A stretch of DNA of 20,000 bases. Source: Basidiobolus ranarum. Its lineage: Eukaryota. Under the pieces are notes generated by a model. The model did no database searches. It was not told the origin of the DNA and saw only the letters and a list, made by a program, of their open reading frames with translations. The stretch covers positions 53,280-73,279 of the forward strand of contig JASJQH010000003.1 of the NCBI GenBank assembly GCA_040143965.1, read 5' to 3'. A program made the position numbers and the translations under genes. Below are positions 25 to 16,259 of the stretch, piece after piece; position 1 is the stretch's first letter, and every line of letters begins with the position of its first letter.

Positions 25-1591
25 ATGCAAGAATAATGGGAAGCAAGCTCATCAAAATAGTCATCCCCAGAGAAGGCAAGACACCCGTAATGATTCCCTT
101 AATAGTGACATTCCAACTCAATATAGGTTTTAGCGGTGGGATCAATCTTGATAACTCCTCGATATTAAACAATGCAGACATAAAAGTAACTAAGGGAAAA
201 GACACTTAATATAAACACGCACGATCATGATTTTCGCCATTGAACTTACCAGGGAAAAACCACAAAATTACCAGGCCAGCTGCCAAGGCCACCGCGATAG
301 ATTTACGAATATACTTTTCGAGTGAAAACATATTAAGGTTCTCCCAAATTACTTCGTCGGGATCTACTTCAAGATAGCGGCCTTCCATAACCAATGGCTT
401 ATGATGAGCTAAAGCTTGTACAGCTAAATGTGCAGCGATTTGTGAATGGAAGGTGATAAACGCAGAGGCTTTAAGTGGGAATTTTGAAGGGTCCTTTTGT
501 TGTTCAAGAATCGTCGCATTCAACTGGGCCAATTCTTGTTTGTAGTAATCAATAGAGTCAATCTTAGGTCCTTTGAATGGAATCCAACCAAGGCGGTGAG
601 TTGGTCGCTTGGGTGTTTTTGTTGGATCCTTCAAAGAAGCCATGATAAAGTTTGACTGTGCCTGCTCAAGTTTTTCCAAAATAGTTTGTCGTTGTGCAAC
701 ATCATTTTGTAGCTTTGTCGCATCTCTGAAACACAGTTGATTAAATTCCAACCGCAAAAAAAGTGAAAAAAATTGAGGTATCTTACCTATTTATGTATAC
801 ATGCTTAACACCTCCAGGGTAAAGAGAAAATACGTTGGTCAACTTTTCTACATTATTCAACTCATCCGGAATCCCGGTAACTAGAATAGTGGATGCTACT
901 GGATCCTTTTGATGTTCAGAGCTCATCAAGTACCGCTGACGGAGCTTTATATATATACTAGTTTCTCTATTAATGAAATAGAGCACAAGTCCTATTGAAA
1001 ATAGTCATGTGAATAGTCTGTTTTTAAAAAATGTAGAGAAATTGTTGAAACTGTAAAATTACCAGTGAATATATAGTCGAAAATAACGTGTGTCCAGAAG
1101 CTTCCTTTTTTTTTGGCTGGGTTTATATTACCAATATTAAAACGATTGAGGCCAGTTGCAGTACCTTCACCAGTGTAGTTTACGGGTAAAATAATCACTA
1201 TTGACAATACCGTCATAATAGAGAACAAGACGAGGCACAATCGCATAAAGCGGAGGAAAACGTATGAATCAAAACCTATTCGCTTCAACAGTGTTTTATC
1301 ACGAGTTTTGTACACATCCACTAACCATGCTATAGGGCTTTTGGGTAGTTTTGGTGGACGTTTTCTTAAGGATAGATAGAACGTTAGAACTGAATGGAAA
1401 CATGGTTGAGGTTTAACTTACTCTTTTTCCACCATATAGGTTCGAGGCTCGTAAATACTATCATCCAATCGATGTACAATAACATAGGCTACATAGAATC
1501 CTCCAGCAACGGCTAAATTAAATAGCAGAGAGGTTACGAAGGGCGCAACATACCCATTCTTAAACTGTTCACTCTGCTGGTCGTCTGCCAT
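25..1591 (-). CDS. OSCA/TMEM63/CSC1 (RSN1/PHM7-like) calcium-permeable mechanosensitive channel, 5' part; the gene continues off the left edge
   Basis: Manually spliced exons 1591-1422, 1364-1063, 991-787, 725-250 and 189-25, all with GT-AG introns; the next intron starts at 24. The protein begins MADDQQSEQFKNGYVAPFVTSLLFNLAVAGG..IYEPRT. It carries family motifs IGFDSYVFLRF, ILPVN, TILVTGIP, SAFITF, EVDPDEVIWENL and GIITGVLPS. Confidence 0.93.
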
Positions 1592-4336: not shown

Positions 4337-4789
4337 TTATAAAGTCCCGGTTGTAGGGCAGAAGGTATAGTTACCGTTGGGGTCTGGTGTCAGCTTAAAA
4401 TCGGGTGTCTTGGCGATGCAATCCCCATCATTGCCAGGAGTACTAGAAACCACTTCAAGATAATACTCACCTTCTCTTTGTAGACACAATGGTACAGAGA
4501 GGGTAAAGGATAGCTTTCCAGTGGTGGCATCTTCTCCAGGATATCTACGATACTGGGTATGGAGAGATCTATTGGACTTGGAGCTGGATATACTGATTTC
4601 TCGGATGTACTTCACTCGTGAACTACCTACATTCCACTTGAGGGTGACCTTATCATTGGCAGCGAATGTTGACTTGTTACCGGTGGCATGAGTAAGAGGA
4701 GCTACTGACCAGTCACCACACTTATTGAGCGGAGCGGCGGAGACTAATGAGGCTACAGCGATTAAGGAAAGAGTAATGAATGTTCTCAT
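4337..4789 (-). CDS. Small secreted protein, 150 aa, 4 Cys; possibly a Kre9/Knh1-like N-terminal beta-sandwich
   Basis: Intronless ORF. The ATG at 4789 gives the signal peptide MRTFITLSLIAVASLVSA|APL. TATATAA lies ~50 nt upstream on the - strand. The alternating beta-strand pattern (VTLKWN, LSFTLSVP, YYLEVVS) suggests an Ig-like fold; the fold call is inference. Confidence 0.8.
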   Translation of the reverse strand: MRTFITLSLIAVASLVSAAPLNKCGDWSVAPLTHATGNKSTFAANDKVTLKWNVGSSRVKYIREISISSSKSNRSLHTQYRRYPGEDATTGKLSFTLSVPLCLQREGEYYLEVVSSTPGNDGDCIAKTPDFKLTPDPNGNYTFCPTTGTL

Positions 4790-5662: not shown

Positions 5663-6541
5663 TTAATAGTGTTTACCACTGGAGACATATCTGATCTTAT
5701 AGGAACGGTGACCAAATTTACGGTGCTTCTTGAATGGTCTCGTAGGGTGGTGCATGCCCCAGTATGGAGAGATAACTTGGGGTGCTTCTTGATGAACAAA
5801 CGGGTACATAGTTTGTTTGAGTACGCCAGATTGATCAAATTGATTCGACTTGGAAAGAGCGTGACTTTTCTGAGATGAATGAGCATTGACTCTATCCAAC
5901 AACGCATGGCTGGGCTGTTCTTCAGTATACTCCATCATCGGCATTTCCATTGTTCGATCCTTGGTAGAATCATCCGACATCTTAGAGGCTTGATGATCCA
6001 TTGGTTGCATAAAAGAAGTTTCTGTTTGCTCGGTCATTGGCATGTCCATTGTTCCTCTGTCGGTGGACTCTTTGTACATCTCAGAAGAATGATCGGCCAT
6101 GGGTTTCATTGCGAAAGTGGAGTATTCACCTGGCATCATCATAGTATCTTGGAACCCTTCGGCGATGTGGCCCATACCTGATCCCATCGGTTCTTCCATG
6201 CCCACCTGTTTTCCATATGCCGACGAAGTATGCTCTCCTTCGACTAGTGCACTAGGACCCGTCTGATACTTGACATTTATATTCTTCTTGCTTGAAGCCA
6301 TGGCAGTGTTCAAATTGTTATGGTTTCTGGTGACAGTGCTAAATGATTGCTTCATTTCTGGGAATCGAATGCTCTTTTTTACAGTCCACATTGGCATAAT
6401 GCGCGGTTGCATACGGTGAGCACATAGACCAAACTGTAGAGTGCAAGGTTGACCTCCGTAGTTGAAGTACTCAACTGGGACGGATGAAACAGTGCATACT
6501 AAGATTGCAATGGTAGCGAGAAGGTTTCTTGCGGCAAGCAT
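5663..6541 (-). CDS. Secreted Met-rich, low-complexity protein of unknown function (292 aa)
   Basis: Long intronless ORF with signal peptide MLAARNLLATIAILVCTVSS|VP. It has an acidic Met-rich core with a 33-aa internal repeat and a basic His/Lys/Arg-rich C-terminus. Confidence 0.75.
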   Translation of the reverse strand: MLAARNLLATIAILVCTVSSVPVEYFNYGGQPCTLQFGLCAHRMQPRIMPMWTVKKSIRFPEMKQSFSTVTRNHNNLNTAMASSKKNINVKYQTGPSALVEGEHTSSAYGKQVGMEEPMGSGMGHIAEGFQDTMMMPGEYSTFAMKPMADHSSEMYKESTDRGTMDMPMTEQTETSFMQPMDHQASKMSDDSTKDRTMEMPMMEYTEEQPSHALLDRVNAHSSQKSHALSKSNQFDQSGVLKQTMYPFVHQEAPQVISPYWGMHHPTRPFKKHRKFGHRSYKIRYVSSGKHY

Positions 6542-7602: not shown

Positions 7603-8911
7603 ATACCGGAGGAGACTCTGTTACTACTAGTGCTTTATACATTCAAGTACCAGCAATAGTCATTGATTTTCTATTCCTAATTAATTTTATTTTCATATTC
7701 TATTGAAGCCATACCATGAATCTTATAGGTGATAAAAAGGCCCTATGTTGTCGATCGAAATAAATCCATTTTAGAACCAATAAAAGTAGCTTATTACGGT
7801 TTGTATACTAATTTTGACCTCGCTTACTTATCTATTCTATACTTTCCACTTGGTCAATAAGGGAGTTCCATTGAACATATGTACATGAGAAGTGAATAGT
7901 TATTCTATCACGAATGAAAATGTTACACGATAACAGTTTGCAACCTAAATAATCGAATGTAAATTGCTTACTTTTGGCAGCACCTATTCCGAATGAGAGT
8001 GAAACATTACTATAGAAAGTCTAACCTGATTAGGATAGAGATCACTATAATGAAACACATACCAGATAAATATTCTCTCCAAATTAATCAGAAACTGTAA
8101 ATTACACCTCTACTCTACAGCATCATTGTGCCGAAATGTTGCGCCCCAAGATTTACAATAGATATATGTTACTCCTGTCTGTGTCTCATCTAAATTATTT
8201 ATTACCAGGTTTTCTCCAATTACGAATGCTGACACTATCAACGAAATAAATTCCAATCCATACTGTCAAGCATCTGGTAAGCTTCATGTATGCAATCATA
8301 TTTTATCCAAGACATGAAATAGAACAGCTGTTCTATATTCTACCATAGCCATTCATCTTTATATAAACAATGATAAAACAAAACATAACATTGGGGTTAG
8401 ATGGACTTGTGTACTCCATAAACTTAAAGACTGCACAGCTTATCTTGCCATTTTCCAAAGGATTCCCAGAGTGGATCAAAGCGTCATTGCCTATGAATCG
8501 ACTGGTGATTGGGTAGAGTATTTCGATAGCACCTTTCTGGCTTTGAATGTCTACAGTATTTACATGATCCACCACGAAACCACGGTAAGAGCCCTCAGGA
8601 TACAACTCCAACATCCAGTCATTATTTGTGCTAACTGCTTTAGATGGAATATGGTTTCACATTACATCCAACATGAATTACATTATCACTTATGCATAGA
8701 TTTATCGCAAATTATTTGCCTCAGGCAACTCAGCTGAAATCATCCTACACTCTATATTCTGGGAAATGGTATGTACAAAATTGGAGTTGCTTATAGAATA
8801 TCTATTACTTATATATGTGGTACTGGTTGGCAATGCAAAATAAGTCTTTATTGTTGACAAAAACTAATAGCAAGGTAAGAACACTTCAAGCAAAGGACTA
8901 AATTGAGAATG

Positions 8912-10279
8912 TTAAATGCGATGAATAGATTTTCCATCAACAAAGACTTGAATGATGTTACGGTCATCACCGTTGTTAATGAATTTCTCAAATATGGTCT
9001 TTACATCATCATGTGAGAATAAGTCAATAGGTGAACCATGGGCGAGAGGGTCTACAATTAAAGCGTCGAATTGTTTTCCGACCACAAAGTTCCCTAGAGT
9101 ATTCTTCATTCCAAGCACATCAGCACCGCCAAGAGTAGCAAGGTAGAAAATTTCGGCTAACTTTAGATATTTGTCGTCTGGATGGTCAAAGCTACGAGCG
9201 ATGGCTGCAAAATAACCAGTACGAATGGTGTTGAGAATAGAGGTTCCATAACCGCCTGCTACATCCGTACCTAAACCAATCTTTTGGCCTTCAGCCATCA
9301 TTTGACGGACCTTCGCTATGCCACTACGAAGACTGAGATTGGAATTTGGGCAATGAGAGATTCCTACACCACGCTGTTTGAGCAGCTGACGCTCAGCATC
9401 TGTTGGATGAACTACGTGAGCCATAATAGTACGATTTGTCAGTAAACCGTTGACATCGTATACAGAGGTGTAATCAGGTTGGTCTGGATGCAACTGCTTT
9501 ACCCAAGCAATTTCATCAAGGTTCTCATCAAGATGAGATTGAATTGGAACATTATATTTGGCAGCGAGATTACCAAGACCCTTCATCAGCTCAGTCGTAC
9601 AAGATGGAACAAAGCGAGGGGTGACTATTGGGATGACACGGGAATTGTTTTTACTCAAGACATATTGGATAAAAGCCTCCGTATCTTTCAGGCTCTGAGC
9701 AGTAGATTCGACATAGAAATCTGGTGAGTTACGGTCCATGTTGACTTTTCCGACGAGTGCACGCTGTCCCTTTTTCTCCACAATATCTGCTAGTACCTTC
9801 GAGGATTCCAAGTGGATGGTAGCATAGTAGCTGGCAGCGGTTGTACCACCCCGCACCAAACGATCTACAACCTTGTTGTAGGCATCCCTGGCGTAGTTAG
9901 TGTCGTTAAAACGAGCCTCACGAGGAAATGTGTACGTATTAAGCCAGTCAAGTAGCTGCAGATCCATACCAGAGCCAGTAAAGACATATTGTGGAGCGTG
10001 AATATGAGTGTCTATCAATCCAGGGATGAGAAACTTTTGATTACCTAATGGAGTGAGACTCACCCCATATTTAGTGGCTATCTGTTTAGCTTGCGTTTCG
10101 CTTGCATTGTTCTCAACTTGGACTATCTTTCCAGTCTTATCTACGGCGACAACACCGTTGGTAACATGCTCCAGATTAGTTACATTCACAGAATGAACAA
10201 AGCTTCCGTAGAACACATTTTGAGCCGAGATACTACCAACCAAAGCGGCAGAGATTAGAGCAAGTGAGTAGAGATGCAT
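8912..10279 (-). CDS. GUD1: Guanine deaminase (amidohydrolase superfamily) with predicted N-terminal signal peptide, 455 aa, intronless
   Basis: Motifs PGLIDTHIHAPQY (HxH), LLDWLNTYTFP, GKVNMD, TPRFVPSC, QSHLDEN (HxxE), HCPNSN, GLGTDVAGG, GKQFDAL and GDDRNI. N-terminus MHLYSLALISAALVGSISA|QNV. Confidence 0.95.
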   Translation of the reverse strand: MHLYSLALISAALVGSISAQNVFYGSFVHSVNVTNLEHVTNGVVAVDKTGKIVQVENNASETQAKQIATKYGVSLTPLGNQKFLIPGLIDTHIHAPQYVFTGSGMDLQLLDWLNTYTFPREARFNDTNYARDAYNKVVDRLVRGGTTAASYYATIHLESSKVLADIVEKKGQRALVGKVNMDRNSPDFYVESTAQSLKDTEAFIQYVLSKNNSRVIPIVTPRFVPSCTTELMKGLGNLAAKYNVPIQSHLDENLDEIAWVKQLHPDQPDYTSVYDVNGLLTNRTIMAHVVHPTDAERQLLKQRGVGISHCPNSNLSLRSGIAKVRQMMAEGQKIGLGTDVAGGYGTSILNTIRTGYFAAIARSFDHPDDKYLKLAEIFYLATLGGADVLGMKNTLGNFVVGKQFDALIVDPLAHGSPIDLFSHDDVKTIFEKFINNGDDRNIIQVFVDGKSIHRI

Positions 10280-10343
10280 AGCGGGACCGAGAGTAAGCGA
10301 AATGGGTTGCTGATATGGTGTTAATGCACTACGAGGCTACCAC

Positions 10344-10351
10344 TATTTATA
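10344..10351 (-). promoter_or_regulatory. Putative TATA box of the guanine deaminase gene
   Basis: TATAAATA on the - strand ~65 nt upstream of the ATG at 10279. Confidence 0.5.
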
Positions 10352-12417: not shown

Positions 12418-14780
12418 ATGAAGTCTATTACCGCCCTGATCGCACTTTGCAACGTAGTAGCCATGGTTTTGGGTAAATTTGCCTGCTTGAGTTTCATGTA
12501 TTCTGGCCCTTAGTAACACTTTTCTTTTAGCTAAGCCGATTCAAGACGATGGTAGTGCATACATCACCGATATTAGTCTCAAGGCATGCGATCGCACAAG
12601 CTGCGAGCTCCCTGAACCCTGGCATCGTATTCCTTTAGACTTGAATAAGGGCGCTGGAGGAAAATACATCTACCTTCACTACCGCAAAGAGTCCGGAGCG
12701 CAACCTTTAACTAATATAATCCTTCTTAAAGACACAGACCAAGTTCCAAACGGTTACAAAAAATTGGATGTGAATGTGAATGAGGGTTCTGTAGCTCCCA
12801 AGAGATATCTCGCTTACACAAATGGTCTGGTTGCTGGTGCACCTATCCAAAATTTGTTGGTGAAAATAGGAGCTACCCCACATGCTTTAGATGGGTATCG
12901 TACATATGATTTCAATTTGAATGAAGGCGCAGGTAATAAGCACCAATTTTTATGATAAAAGGTTCATAAAGATTAACATTTCACTACTTCAGGAGAAAAG
13001 GTGAGCCTTTTCTACCAGCCTAAAGTGAAGGATGGTAAGGCAATTTATGCTATCATTAGACTGTATACTAGTTATCTAAACCATCGCAGTCCCTATATCA
13101 GATATCACCGTCGAGGCTTGCGATAGTGCTAACTGCGAGAAAGAGGGCTGGATTCGTTCTGATCACGATCTAAATATCAATGCTGGTGGAAAATTCGTTT
13201 ATCTGTTCTATAAGCAAGGGCAAGGAAAGCGTATCACTAGTATTAAAGCCTCAACTAACACCTCAATCCGAGGATACGAGCGCATCCCTACTGACTTGAA
13301 TATTGGAACCAAAGGGCAACCTGTTTATCTTTTCTTTAAGAAAGGTTCAGGAAAGCCTATATATTCCATTACGTTTGAAAGTGGCAAAGATTTAGTTGAT
13401 CCTTTTGGATATACCAAAGTAGAGCAGGATCTCAACGTGGGAACAGGTGCTGATGAGGTGTACCTTTATTATAGATCGAAAGAAGCAAGTAAGTAGCTCC
13501 GACCCTGCTTACACTACGTCTTCACTCTAACACTGAAATTCCACTTCATAATATTAGAATTACCCAAAGTTCCGAAGTTGAAGTTCCATCGGGATGGTAC
13601 ATTCAAAATCCTCCAGTTGGCCGACCTTCATATGACTAGTCATCGAAGTGCATGCTATAATATTCCATCAACGACTGAGGTAAGCCAGCGAGCCATAAAT
13701 GACCTTGAATGTCGCTTCTTCAACCTTAATATTCATCTTGTATTATCATGATCAAGTGGAGCAATTGCACTAACCTAAAAACATTCGAATTCGCCGAACG
13801 AATGATCAAAGCTGAAAAACCTGACATGATTGCTTTTACTGGTGACAATGTGATGGGTTCACGTGATCCCAGAGCAAGTGTTCTCAAATATGCTAGTCTA
13901 GCAGCCAAGCACAAAATCCCATGGGTAAGCAAAGTTATATGTACAGTCTATTTAGAATTCATATTTACGCATGCGAAGGCATTTGTCCATGGTAATCATG
14001 ATGACGAAGCGGATCTATCTCGTCTTGAGCTTACTCAAACTGCCCTCTCCGTTCCATATAATCTTGGCCGAAATGGACCATATAGCTTATTTGGCTCCGG
14101 GAATTACTTCACTCAGATCACCAATTCCAAGTACGTGAAGTTTTATGTATTAGATCAGATTGTTGTCTAACTGTTACATTCATATTCATCTGTTAGAGGC
14201 CAACCCGGATTCACTCTATACTTTGTAGATTCCGGGGCCTATAACCTTGATGGCCCTGGATACGACTTCATCAAAGATAATCAGGTGAATTGGTTTAAGG
14301 AGGCATCTAAAAAACTAAGCAATCGAAAAGGCCAGAAGCCCAATGCTATTGCTTTCTGGCATATTCCAACCACGGAGTACGCCGAAGTATCAAAGGTACC
14401 TGAGAAGCAAGTTGGCAATAAGGGAGAAGCTGTTTCCAGTGCTAAAGTGAAATCTCCTTGGATTGACGCACTGCATGAATGTAAGATAATGTTAATTAAA
14501 TACACTAGAGTTTCATGCTAATTTCTCTCATTCACTAGCGGGTGACGTTAAAATGACAATTGTTGGTCATGATCATGTAAATGACTATTGTTTTCCCTTC
14601 TCATCTATGCAATTATGCTATGGTGGAGGTACTGGTTACGGAACTTACGGAGCTACAGACAAAGGTTGGGATCGACGCTCTCGAGTTATTGAAATCTCTA
14701 AAAATGGTCAAAATATCAAAACCTGGAAGCGTAAAGATGACGTCAACCTGACTACTTTTGATCCACAAATCATCCTTTAG
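12418..14780 (+). CDS. Secreted calcineurin-like metallophosphoesterase (DCR2/SIA1-like) with two N-terminal MABP-like beta-prism modules (~621 aa, 9 exons)
   Basis: Exons 12418-12472, 12531-12932, 12993-13034, 13090-13488, 13558-13679, 13757-13924, 13979-14130, 14197-14480 and 14539-14780 sum to 1866 nt in frame. Signal peptide MKSITALIALCNVVAMVLA|KP. Six DLNxGxG..YLxY-type repeats. All five metallophosphoesterase motifs are present: FKILQLADLH, FTGDN, GNHD, FWHIP, GHDHVND. C-terminal CYGGGTGYGTYG..RRSRVIE is typical of the DCR2 group. Confidence 0.9.
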
Positions 14781-15761: not shown

Positions 15762-16259
15762 TTAAGCACCAAAGACTTGAGTCCAGTAGTGTCTATTGGC
15801 AACATAACCAGATCCAAAAGAGGTGAATTGAGAATTGAGAATGTTTCGTCGATGTCCAGCTGAATTCATCCAACCTTCCATGACAGTCTCGATACTAGTA
15901 TACCCCTGAGCTACGTTTTCTCCGATAGATCTCCATTTGAAACCAGTTTCAGTAACCCGGGTACTCAAAGGTCTTCCAGGTTCGTCGTGAGTCATTTGGC
16001 CTACACGAGCTTGATAATCAGTATGCTTTTGAGCCGCTTGTACCAAACGATTGTCCAGTTTAAGTGGTTTAACTCCATTTTGTTGACGCTGCTGGTTAAC
16101 TAGAGTGAGCATCTTTTGAAGATCTCCATTGCCTGATGCGTAAGTTTTCACTTTCCTTTGACGTCTGTTGACATAACTGACATCTTGGGAACCAGCAATA
16201 ACTAGTATCACTTGAGAAAGTACAAAGGTTAAGCAAATTATGATTGACCAGCTTTTCAT
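15762..16259 (-). CDS. Secreted CAP/SCP/PR-1-like protein, bacterial (YkwD-like) subtype, 165 aa, intronless
   Basis: Signal peptide MKSWSIIICLTFVLSQVILVIA. CAP motifs LVNQQR, AAQKH, MTH, GENVAQG, WMNSAGHRRNILN, YWTQVFG. TATAAAA lies ~100 nt upstream. Confidence 0.92.
   Translation of the reverse strand: MKSWSIIICLTFVLSQVILVIAGSQDVSYVNRRQRKVKTYASGNGDLQKMLTLVNQQRQQNGVKPLKLDNRLVQAAQKHTDYQARVGQMTHDEPGRPLSTRVTETGFKWRSIGENVAQGYTSIETVMEGWMNSAGHRRNILNSQFTSFGSGYVANRHYWTQVFGA

Follow-up and report, generated by a model that had tools for sequence, protein, structure and literature searches.

Guanine deaminase is regarded as a housekeeping enzyme that serves purine salvage and catabolism in the cytoplasm, and both yeast Gud1 and Escherichia coli GuaD are cytoplasmic enzymes. 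In this study, we analyzed a 20,000-nucleotide stretch of the fungus Basidiobolus ranarum (GenBank assembly GCA_040143965.1, contig JASJQH010000003.1, positions 53,280 to 73,279 of the forward strand; hereafter the window), which carries on its minus strand, at positions 8912..10279, a guanine deaminase gene with a hydrophobic N-terminal leader. Every sequence test places the encoded protein (the window protein) in the guanine deaminase family, and its peculiarity lies in its predicted cellular address. An earlier reading of the letters alone, referred to here as the original prediction, had taken it for a guanine deaminase that is exported to release nitrogen from environmental guanine. Our analysis indicates that entry of the protein into the secretory route in one form or another is probable, and we favor with moderate confidence its export, that is, the movement of a catalytically intact Zn-dependent enzyme from the cytosol to the secretory pathway.

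Human GDA (cypin; PDB 2uz9, 4aql, and 3e0l) belongs to the same family and has the same fold as the window protein, and the HxH, HxxE, HCPNSN, and GTD motifs of the two align column for column. However, the N-terminus of human GDA is short and hydrophilic and carries no signal. The window protein, by comparison, starts with a hydrophobic leader of 19 residues, contains only two Cys residues, and has N-glycosylation sequons that are specific to its clade. Human GDA was detected in the culture medium of SH-SY5Y neuroblastoma cells, and the accessible part of that report mentions no signal peptide (PMC5826394). Yeast Gud1 (6oh9) and E. coli GuaD (6ohb) are guanine deaminases of the same amidohydrolase type, and the alignment of neither reaches the leader. 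Among purine deaminases, the ADGF/ADA2 (CECR1) proteins are secreted adenosine deaminases that have a signal peptide and act on extracellular purines. They are a functional analogue of the window protein, from which they differ in family and substrate; membership in that group was rejected, as the Pfam scan gave only PF01979 and PF07969 and no adenosine deaminase family. In Chlamydomonas, the guanine deaminase GDA1 gates the release of nitrogen from solid guanine and is induced approximately 40-fold by nitrogen starvation; the guanine in question is stored by the cell itself in its vacuole, and the available portion of the paper mentions no signal peptide (PMC12541418).

For early-diverging fungi, guanine deaminase is included within MEROPS M38 among the expanded families, its localization not being given in the accessible part of the source (PMC8778642). 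Neither there nor in the accessible part of PMC9224576 is a signal-bearing or exported guanine deaminase mentioned, and the words 'guanine', 'deaminase', 'amidohydrolase', and 'purine' are all absent from the main text, the only part considered, of a paper on zygomycete secretomes (PMC9391592). Our literature search, which had subscription journals and supplementary tables outside its scope, yielded no paper on a signal-bearing, secreted, extracellular, or periplasmic guanine deaminase, in agreement with the novelty claimed in the original prediction. The Basidiobolus proteins themselves are already public under the names 'guanine deaminase' or 'hypothetical protein'.

The gene is one unbroken open reading frame (ORF) of 455 codons plus TAA, lying in a stop-to-stop ORF at 8912..10336. 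Its parts are as follows.

10344..10351, minus strand: TATA-box-like element TATAAATA, 72 nucleotides (nt) 5' of the ATG
10337..10339, minus strand: upstream in-frame stop codon, which closes the frame 57 nt before M1
10223..10279, minus strand: predicted cleavable signal peptide, codons 1-19, MHLYSLALISAALVGSISA (hydropathy, -3/-1 rule, conservation, and structure model)
8915..10222, minus strand: mature guanine deaminase, codons 20-455, amidohydrolase TIM-barrel and beta-sandwich (Pfam, TIGR02967, 2uz9, and structure model)
8912..8914, minus strand: TAA stop codon (read from the sequence)
8847..8852, minus strand: AATAAA, a polyadenylation-signal-like hexamer, 59 nt 3' of the stop

No ATG was found between the TATA-box-like element and the start codon, and the second in-frame Met, M105, is C-terminal to the HxH metal site at residues 92-94. 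Because the next Met falls after HxH, translation can yield a working enzyme only from M1, barring a hidden upstream exon. The start codon assumed in the original prediction is supported by the position of M105 together with the nearby upstream stop and TATA-box-like element.

The protein matched PF01979 (Amidohydro_1) at 7.4e-62 in the Pfam scan. It scored 445.1 bits against a cut-off of 375.4 with the guanine deaminase equivalog TIGR02967, and residues 37-449 covered positions 2-401 of the 401-position profile. The match to human GDA (2uz9) had an expect value (E) of 3e-125 over residues 20-452, so that the alignment begins at residue 20, and yeast Gud1 and E. coli GuaD were matched with E of 1.4e-102 and 6.4e-72, respectively. 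Compared with 114 other relatives, the window protein keeps 105 of the 106 columns that are at least 90% conserved. Furthermore, H92, H94, Q97, R222, H249, H288, H309, C310, N314, and D339 were invariant in an alignment of 60 sequences, in which E252 was conserved at 90% or more. The active-site motifs are located as follows.

9998..10006, minus strand: H92-I-H94, first two metal ligands (HxH), invariant and aligned with THIHA of human GDA
9524..9535, minus strand: H249-L-D-E252, metal-ligand His (invariant) and catalytic Glu (at least 90% conserved)
9338..9355, minus strand: H309-C-P-N-S-N314, conserved active-site loop, in which C310 is one of the protein's two Cys
9263..9271, minus strand: G337-T-D339, with the invariant metal-ligand Asp, D339

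The metal ligands (HxH, His, and Asp), the catalytic Glu of HxxE, and the second His (H288) are all present and aligned with those of the human enzyme. Residues 82, 84, 240, 243, 279, and 330 of human GDA, which we take to be their counterparts, fit the offset of the alignment with the window protein. The substrate-pocket residues Q97 (the Gln after HxH) and R222 (the Arg of the PRF motif), both among the invariant positions, are also kept. An AlphaFold2 model built on the family alignment had a mean predicted local distance difference test (pLDDT) value of 94.7 and a predicted template modeling (pTM) score of 0.92. In the model, the fold opens with a strand at residues 19-30 (pLDDT about 98), while residues 1-14 have a pLDDT below 50 and form a free helix (residues 5-12) outside the fold. 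Judged by these sequence features, the window protein is a full guanine deaminase with an intact active site and is predicted to deaminate guanine to xanthine. The original prediction of a complete enzyme, made from the same four motifs, agrees with the full-length TIGR02967 match.

The N-terminus reads MHLYSLALISAALVGSISA followed by QNVFYGSFVHS. It can be divided into an n-region (MHLYS), an h-region (LALISAALVG), and a c-region (SISA), and the best uncharged 8-mer, ALISAALV, had a mean Kyte-Doolittle hydropathy of 2.61. Signal peptidase cleavage sites have small uncharged residues at -1 and -3, without Pro (the von Heijne rule); sites compatible with this were found after G15, S16, S18, and A19, and matching sites were found in its three full-length leader-bearing relatives from Basidiobolus, P0002-P0004. 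The C-terminus (...GKSIHRI) has no K/HDEL signal for retention in the endoplasmic reticulum (ER), as originally stated, and the remaining chain is a confidently folded soluble domain in which no further membrane span was found. A mitochondrial presequence or a peroxisomal targeting signal of type 2 (PTS2) was rejected by eye, the leader having neither Arg or Lys nor an amphipathic pattern. The candidate 19-residue signal peptide joined to the strand VFYGSFVHS is present as the original prediction gave it; its residues 1-14 lie outside the predicted fold, and it has the features that our heuristic looks for.

The N-termini of the family were then compared among 335 collected proteins, of which 265 have an initial Met and an alignment that begins no later than query residue 40. 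An uncharged 8-mer with a score of 2.2 or more ahead of the fold was present in only 10 of the 265. Four of the ten are the window protein (P0001) and P0002-P0004, which belong to one clade, and the other six are P0031, P0061, P0102, P0205, P0229, and P0253, the last being a fusion. Such a segment is thus uncommon among the comparable members of the family. P0061, an amoebozoan guanine deaminase from Planoprotostelium fungivorum, has a signal-like N-terminus, MIRQLRQALCLLFLVRFLAG, with an 8-mer of 3.31, 9 Cys, and one sequon; its leader could be an independent relocalization or a gene-model artefact. Several guanine deaminases from metagenomes or assemblies (P0072, P0082, P0085, P0093, and P0102, several of them 514-523 amino acids (aa) long) have N-terminal extensions of 52-78 residues with a membrane-span-like stretch, such as LFLGLVGGTSSALVATFLAK, which suggests membrane-anchored or organelle-targeted forms in other eukaryotes.

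The leader clade consists of P0001-P0005 and a number of shortened models. The proteins nearest to the window protein are from B. ranarum (92% identity) and B. meristosporus (83%). Its leader is conserved at 18 of 20 positions in P0002 and 15 of 20 in P0003, the differences including L/I and V/I exchanges, and the N-termini of P0001-P0003 share the pattern MH/YL.SLA.ISA.L.G.ISAQ. The N-terminus of P0004 is MRFLSLALLSAALVASADAAATAGN, and that of P0336, a B. ranarum model of 149 residues with 63% identity over residues 1-120, is MHFLTFLFISATLAHEIVGQ. A hydrophobic leader is accordingly located at the same position in P0002, P0003, P0004, and P0336 and spans three paralogue subclades. Extra copies of the clade are deposited as shortened models of 149-383 aa (P0006, P0007, P0336, and P0337, from B. 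meristosporus and B. ranarum, and P0263). As far as the deposited models go, they suggest that the clade has expanded in this lineage, with some copies either decaying or mis-modeled.

The same species also have guanine deaminases without a signal, for which the original prediction had suggested looking: P0008 and P0009 of B. meristosporus and P0010 of B. ranarum (clade B), with 57% identity to the window protein over 452 residues. Their N-termini are short and hydrophilic (MLQTPADFAANQ... and MNSSTTSR...). They have the same catalytic motifs as the window protein, and unlike the leader clade they have longer C-termini that do not end in H-[KR]-[LI]. In a careful maximum-likelihood tree of 32 rows and 461 columns, clade B was the sister group of P0011 plus the leader clade (support 99/95). 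P0011, a metagenome protein with a cut N-terminus, was the only relative from outside Basidiobolus on the leader-clade branch (support 100/99), and a search with it returned nothing nearer than the Basidiobolus clade, at 54-55%. This whole group was nested inside zygomycete fungi (support 95/87), and a quick tree of 51 rows agreed. Horizontal transfer as the origin of the leader clade was rejected: the clade groups with the signal-less Basidiobolus paralogues inside zygomycete fungi, and the leader form therefore goes back to a duplication within fungi, not to gene transfer. In pairwise alignment, the tail of the sister clade, ...FAANQASASAPR-LFYG, stands opposite ...SAALVGSISAQN-VFYG of the window protein. 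This alignment suggests that the leader arose in place, the existing N-terminal tail having turned hydrophobic.

The Cys content of the leader clade is also distinctive. The models of 420-520 aa (P0001-P0005) have exactly two Cys each, C227 and C310, at columns that are 99-100% Cys in relatives, whereas the signal-less Basidiobolus paralogues have 7-8. The next lowest count among 226 full-length relatives was 4, and 99 other full-length relatives had a median of 8 (range 4-18). The sister clade has Cys at five further columns, which read S, S, D, V, and A in the leader clade. In P0011, too, these Cys are replaced, and the purge of Cys is therefore placed on the stem that P0011 shares with the leader clade. 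Loss of free thiols is expected of a protein that folds in the ER and would be consistent with an oxidizing route.

Six sequons are present in the window protein, namely N32 (NVT), N58 (NAS), N125 (NDT), N211 (NNS), N282 (NRT), and N314 (NLS). Their occurrence was compared in seven leader-clade models, the three proteins of clade B, and 111 others, and their total number was compared with 99 full-length others. Three of the six were largely confined to the leader clade.

10178..10186, minus strand: sequon N32-V-T; leader clade 5/7, clade B 0/3, others 2/111; in the loop after strand 19-30 of the model
10100..10108, minus strand: sequon N58-A-S; leader clade 5/7, clade B 1/3, others 8/111; in the loop before helix 61-70 of the model
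9899..9907, minus strand: sequon N125-D-T; leader clade 7/7, clade B 0/3, others 1/111; also in P0336

In the predicted model, each of the three occupies a loop or the end of a helix. As weak additional evidence, the isoelectric point of the mature protein is 6.7-7.4 in the leader clade vs 5.3-5.6 in the sister clade.

Taken together, the leader in three subclades, the signal-less paralogues, the loss of all dispensable Cys, the three sequons, and the sole workable start back the part of the original proposal that concerns entry into the secretory pathway. Work in the cytosol would then fall to a signal-less paralogue. In the mechanism that we propose, the leader would direct the protein to the ER and be removed by cleavage after S16 or A19, and the protein would be N-glycosylated. 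Having no retention signal, pro-peptide, or membrane anchor, it would end up outside the cell, in the medium or the cell wall, where it would convert poorly soluble guanine and water to xanthine and NH3/ammonium. Such a reaction would be an initial extracellular step by which Basidiobolus scavenges purine nitrogen in its gut, dung, and litter habitats. The fungus is dispersed by insects, lives as a symbiont in the gut of reptiles and amphibians, and occurs in soil and litter as well, according to the accessible parts of two sources (PMC9391592; bioRxiv 10.1101/2025.03.31.646025). Possible sources of guanine in the herptile gut, dung, and litter are the excreta of arthropods and arachnids, prey tissue, microbial guanine crystals, and nucleic-acid debris. 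The specific sources named in the original prediction, arachnid or mite excreta and iridophores, are speculation. Only tentatively do we extend the proposal to the genus, which would have evolved a small family of guanine deaminases, secreted and glycosylated and comprising three or more paralogue subclades, to mine solid guanine as a nitrogen source.

Several observations weigh against export. The signal was called by a heuristic of our own, which combines Kyte-Doolittle hydropathy with the -3/-1 rule. The n-region of the leader has no Lys or Arg, and the value of 2.61 for the h-region is below the 2.91-3.26 of three neighboring signal-bearing ORFs in the window; by this hydropathy measure the candidate leader is weaker than theirs, yet of the same kind. 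Within the clade, P0005 has only a shortened leader, and the deposited P0006, P0007, and P0263 begin at or after the first strand and have none, some of them being shortened internally as well; these leaderless models may be mis-models or decaying copies. The six sequons, which the original prediction had counted in favor of secretion, are all present, but their total is within the range of the family (median 3, range 0-6, with six also in 7 of the 99 others). N314 is part of a family motif found in 62 of the 111 others, and the N282 sequon is found in 16 of the 111, so that these two also occur in signal-less relatives. The C-terminal H-[KR]-[LI] of the leader clade (8915-8923 of the window, minus strand) loosely resembles a peroxisomal targeting signal of type 1 (PTS1). 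Finally, no purine transporter or purine catabolic gene was found near the guanine deaminase gene within the 20-kb window.

With the leader accepted as a signal peptide, the enzyme could still be kept in a vacuole or lysosome-like compartment and act there on guanine from RNA turnover or from an internal store. All of the evidence for secretory entry applies equally to this explanation, and the sorting signals of fungal vacuolar proteins are short and may escape inspection by eye. Furthermore, a precedent exists in Chlamydomonas, which keeps guanine crystals in its vacuoles as nitrogen reserves and raises guanine deaminase upon nitrogen starvation, as described in the accessible part of the paper cited above. 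Against it, the mature N-terminus is located directly at the first strand, so that there is no room for a pro-peptide of the kind used in vacuolar sorting; in yeast hydrolases, the vacuolar sorting signals are carried in pro-peptides. The literature search also turned up no guanine stores in Basidiobolus. We regard vacuolar retention as unlikely, although it fares best among the alternatives to export.

Considerably less likely is that the leader is an uncleaved signal anchor, which would make the enzyme a type II membrane protein whose catalytic domain faces the lumen or the outside. Residues 1-36 of the window protein are uncharged, E37 being the first charged residue, and an n-region that has no basic residue would be compatible with such an anchor. 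However, the strongly hydrophobic part of the leader, about 9-11 residues broken by Ser and Gly, falls short of a membrane span, and residues 19-30 belong to the confidently modeled strand of the fold. In addition, small residues occur at -3/-1 after the core in all of P0001-P0004.

To about the same low degree we credit the possibility that the leader has no function in export and that the protein is cytosolic or, through H-[KR]-[LI] acting as a weak PTS1, peroxisomal, where it would be near urate oxidase. In fungi, the later part of purine catabolism, with urate oxidase, takes place in peroxisomes, and the tripeptide (HRI, HRL, or HKL) ends six of six leader-clade models, the window protein and P0002-P0006, and none of the other 329 proteins collected. 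Nevertheless, it departs from the canonical [SAC][KRH][LM], with His at -3 and, in three of the six, Ile at -1. An N-terminal signal emerges first and would normally win, and this alternative leaves the purge of Cys and the clade-specific sequons unexplained. In the accessible portions of the sources found, our literature search met no peroxisomal guanine deaminase outside kinetoplastid glycosome contexts.

That the gene is not expressed as read, being a silent copy or having a different start or a hidden upstream exon, is very improbable: several copies of the clade in Basidiobolus are indeed shortened, as described above, but this ORF is intact, keeps nearly all conserved columns, and is flanked by TATA and AATAAA signals, its leader protein sequence is kept, with conservative exchanges among L, I, and V, across three subclades and in two other species, and no alternative in-frame ATG lies ahead of the metal site.

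The other genes of the window were also examined. The neighbors of the guanine deaminase gene encode an RSN1/PHM7 membrane protein, a small protein weakly similar to Kre9/KNH, a metallophosphoesterase, and a CAP protein. The three ORFs with a clear hydrophobic leader and the remaining genes are as follows.

206-1417, minus strand: pieces of an RSN1/PHM7 (CSC1/OSCA-like) membrane protein (RSN1_TM 5.3e-29, PHM7_cyt 1.7e-25), the gene being interrupted by introns and running toward the window edge
4340-4789, minus strand: 150-aa protein with a clear hydrophobic leader and a weak Kre9/KNH-like match below the cut-off
5666-6541, minus strand: 292-aa Met-rich protein with a clear hydrophobic leader and no Pfam match
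12491-12952 and 13080-13493, plus strand: adjacent frames with several repeats of DLN.GAGGK..YL.Y and no Pfam match at E of 0.01 or below, probably exons of one repeat protein
13730-14777, plus strand: calcineurin-like metallophosphoesterase (PF00149, 1.5e-05), apparently split among three reading frames, suggestive of short introns
15765-16259, minus strand: CAP-family protein (1.8e-21) with a clear hydrophobic leader

Returning to the export of guanine deaminase, the leader gained in place, the free Cys lost, and the sequons gained would make this case a clean natural example of protein relocalization. If the enzyme is not secreted, the conserved leader and the purge of Cys still need explaining. 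If it is secreted and stable, it could serve in assays of guanine or purine removal. A duplicate sent down the secretory route would, if true, add a nucleobase-level step to the extracellular digestive repertoire of fungi, and the deamination of a nucleobase would become an extracellular digestive step in a fungus. Such a secreted guanine deaminase would suit a genus that lives in guts and dung and in association with insects, amid purine waste.

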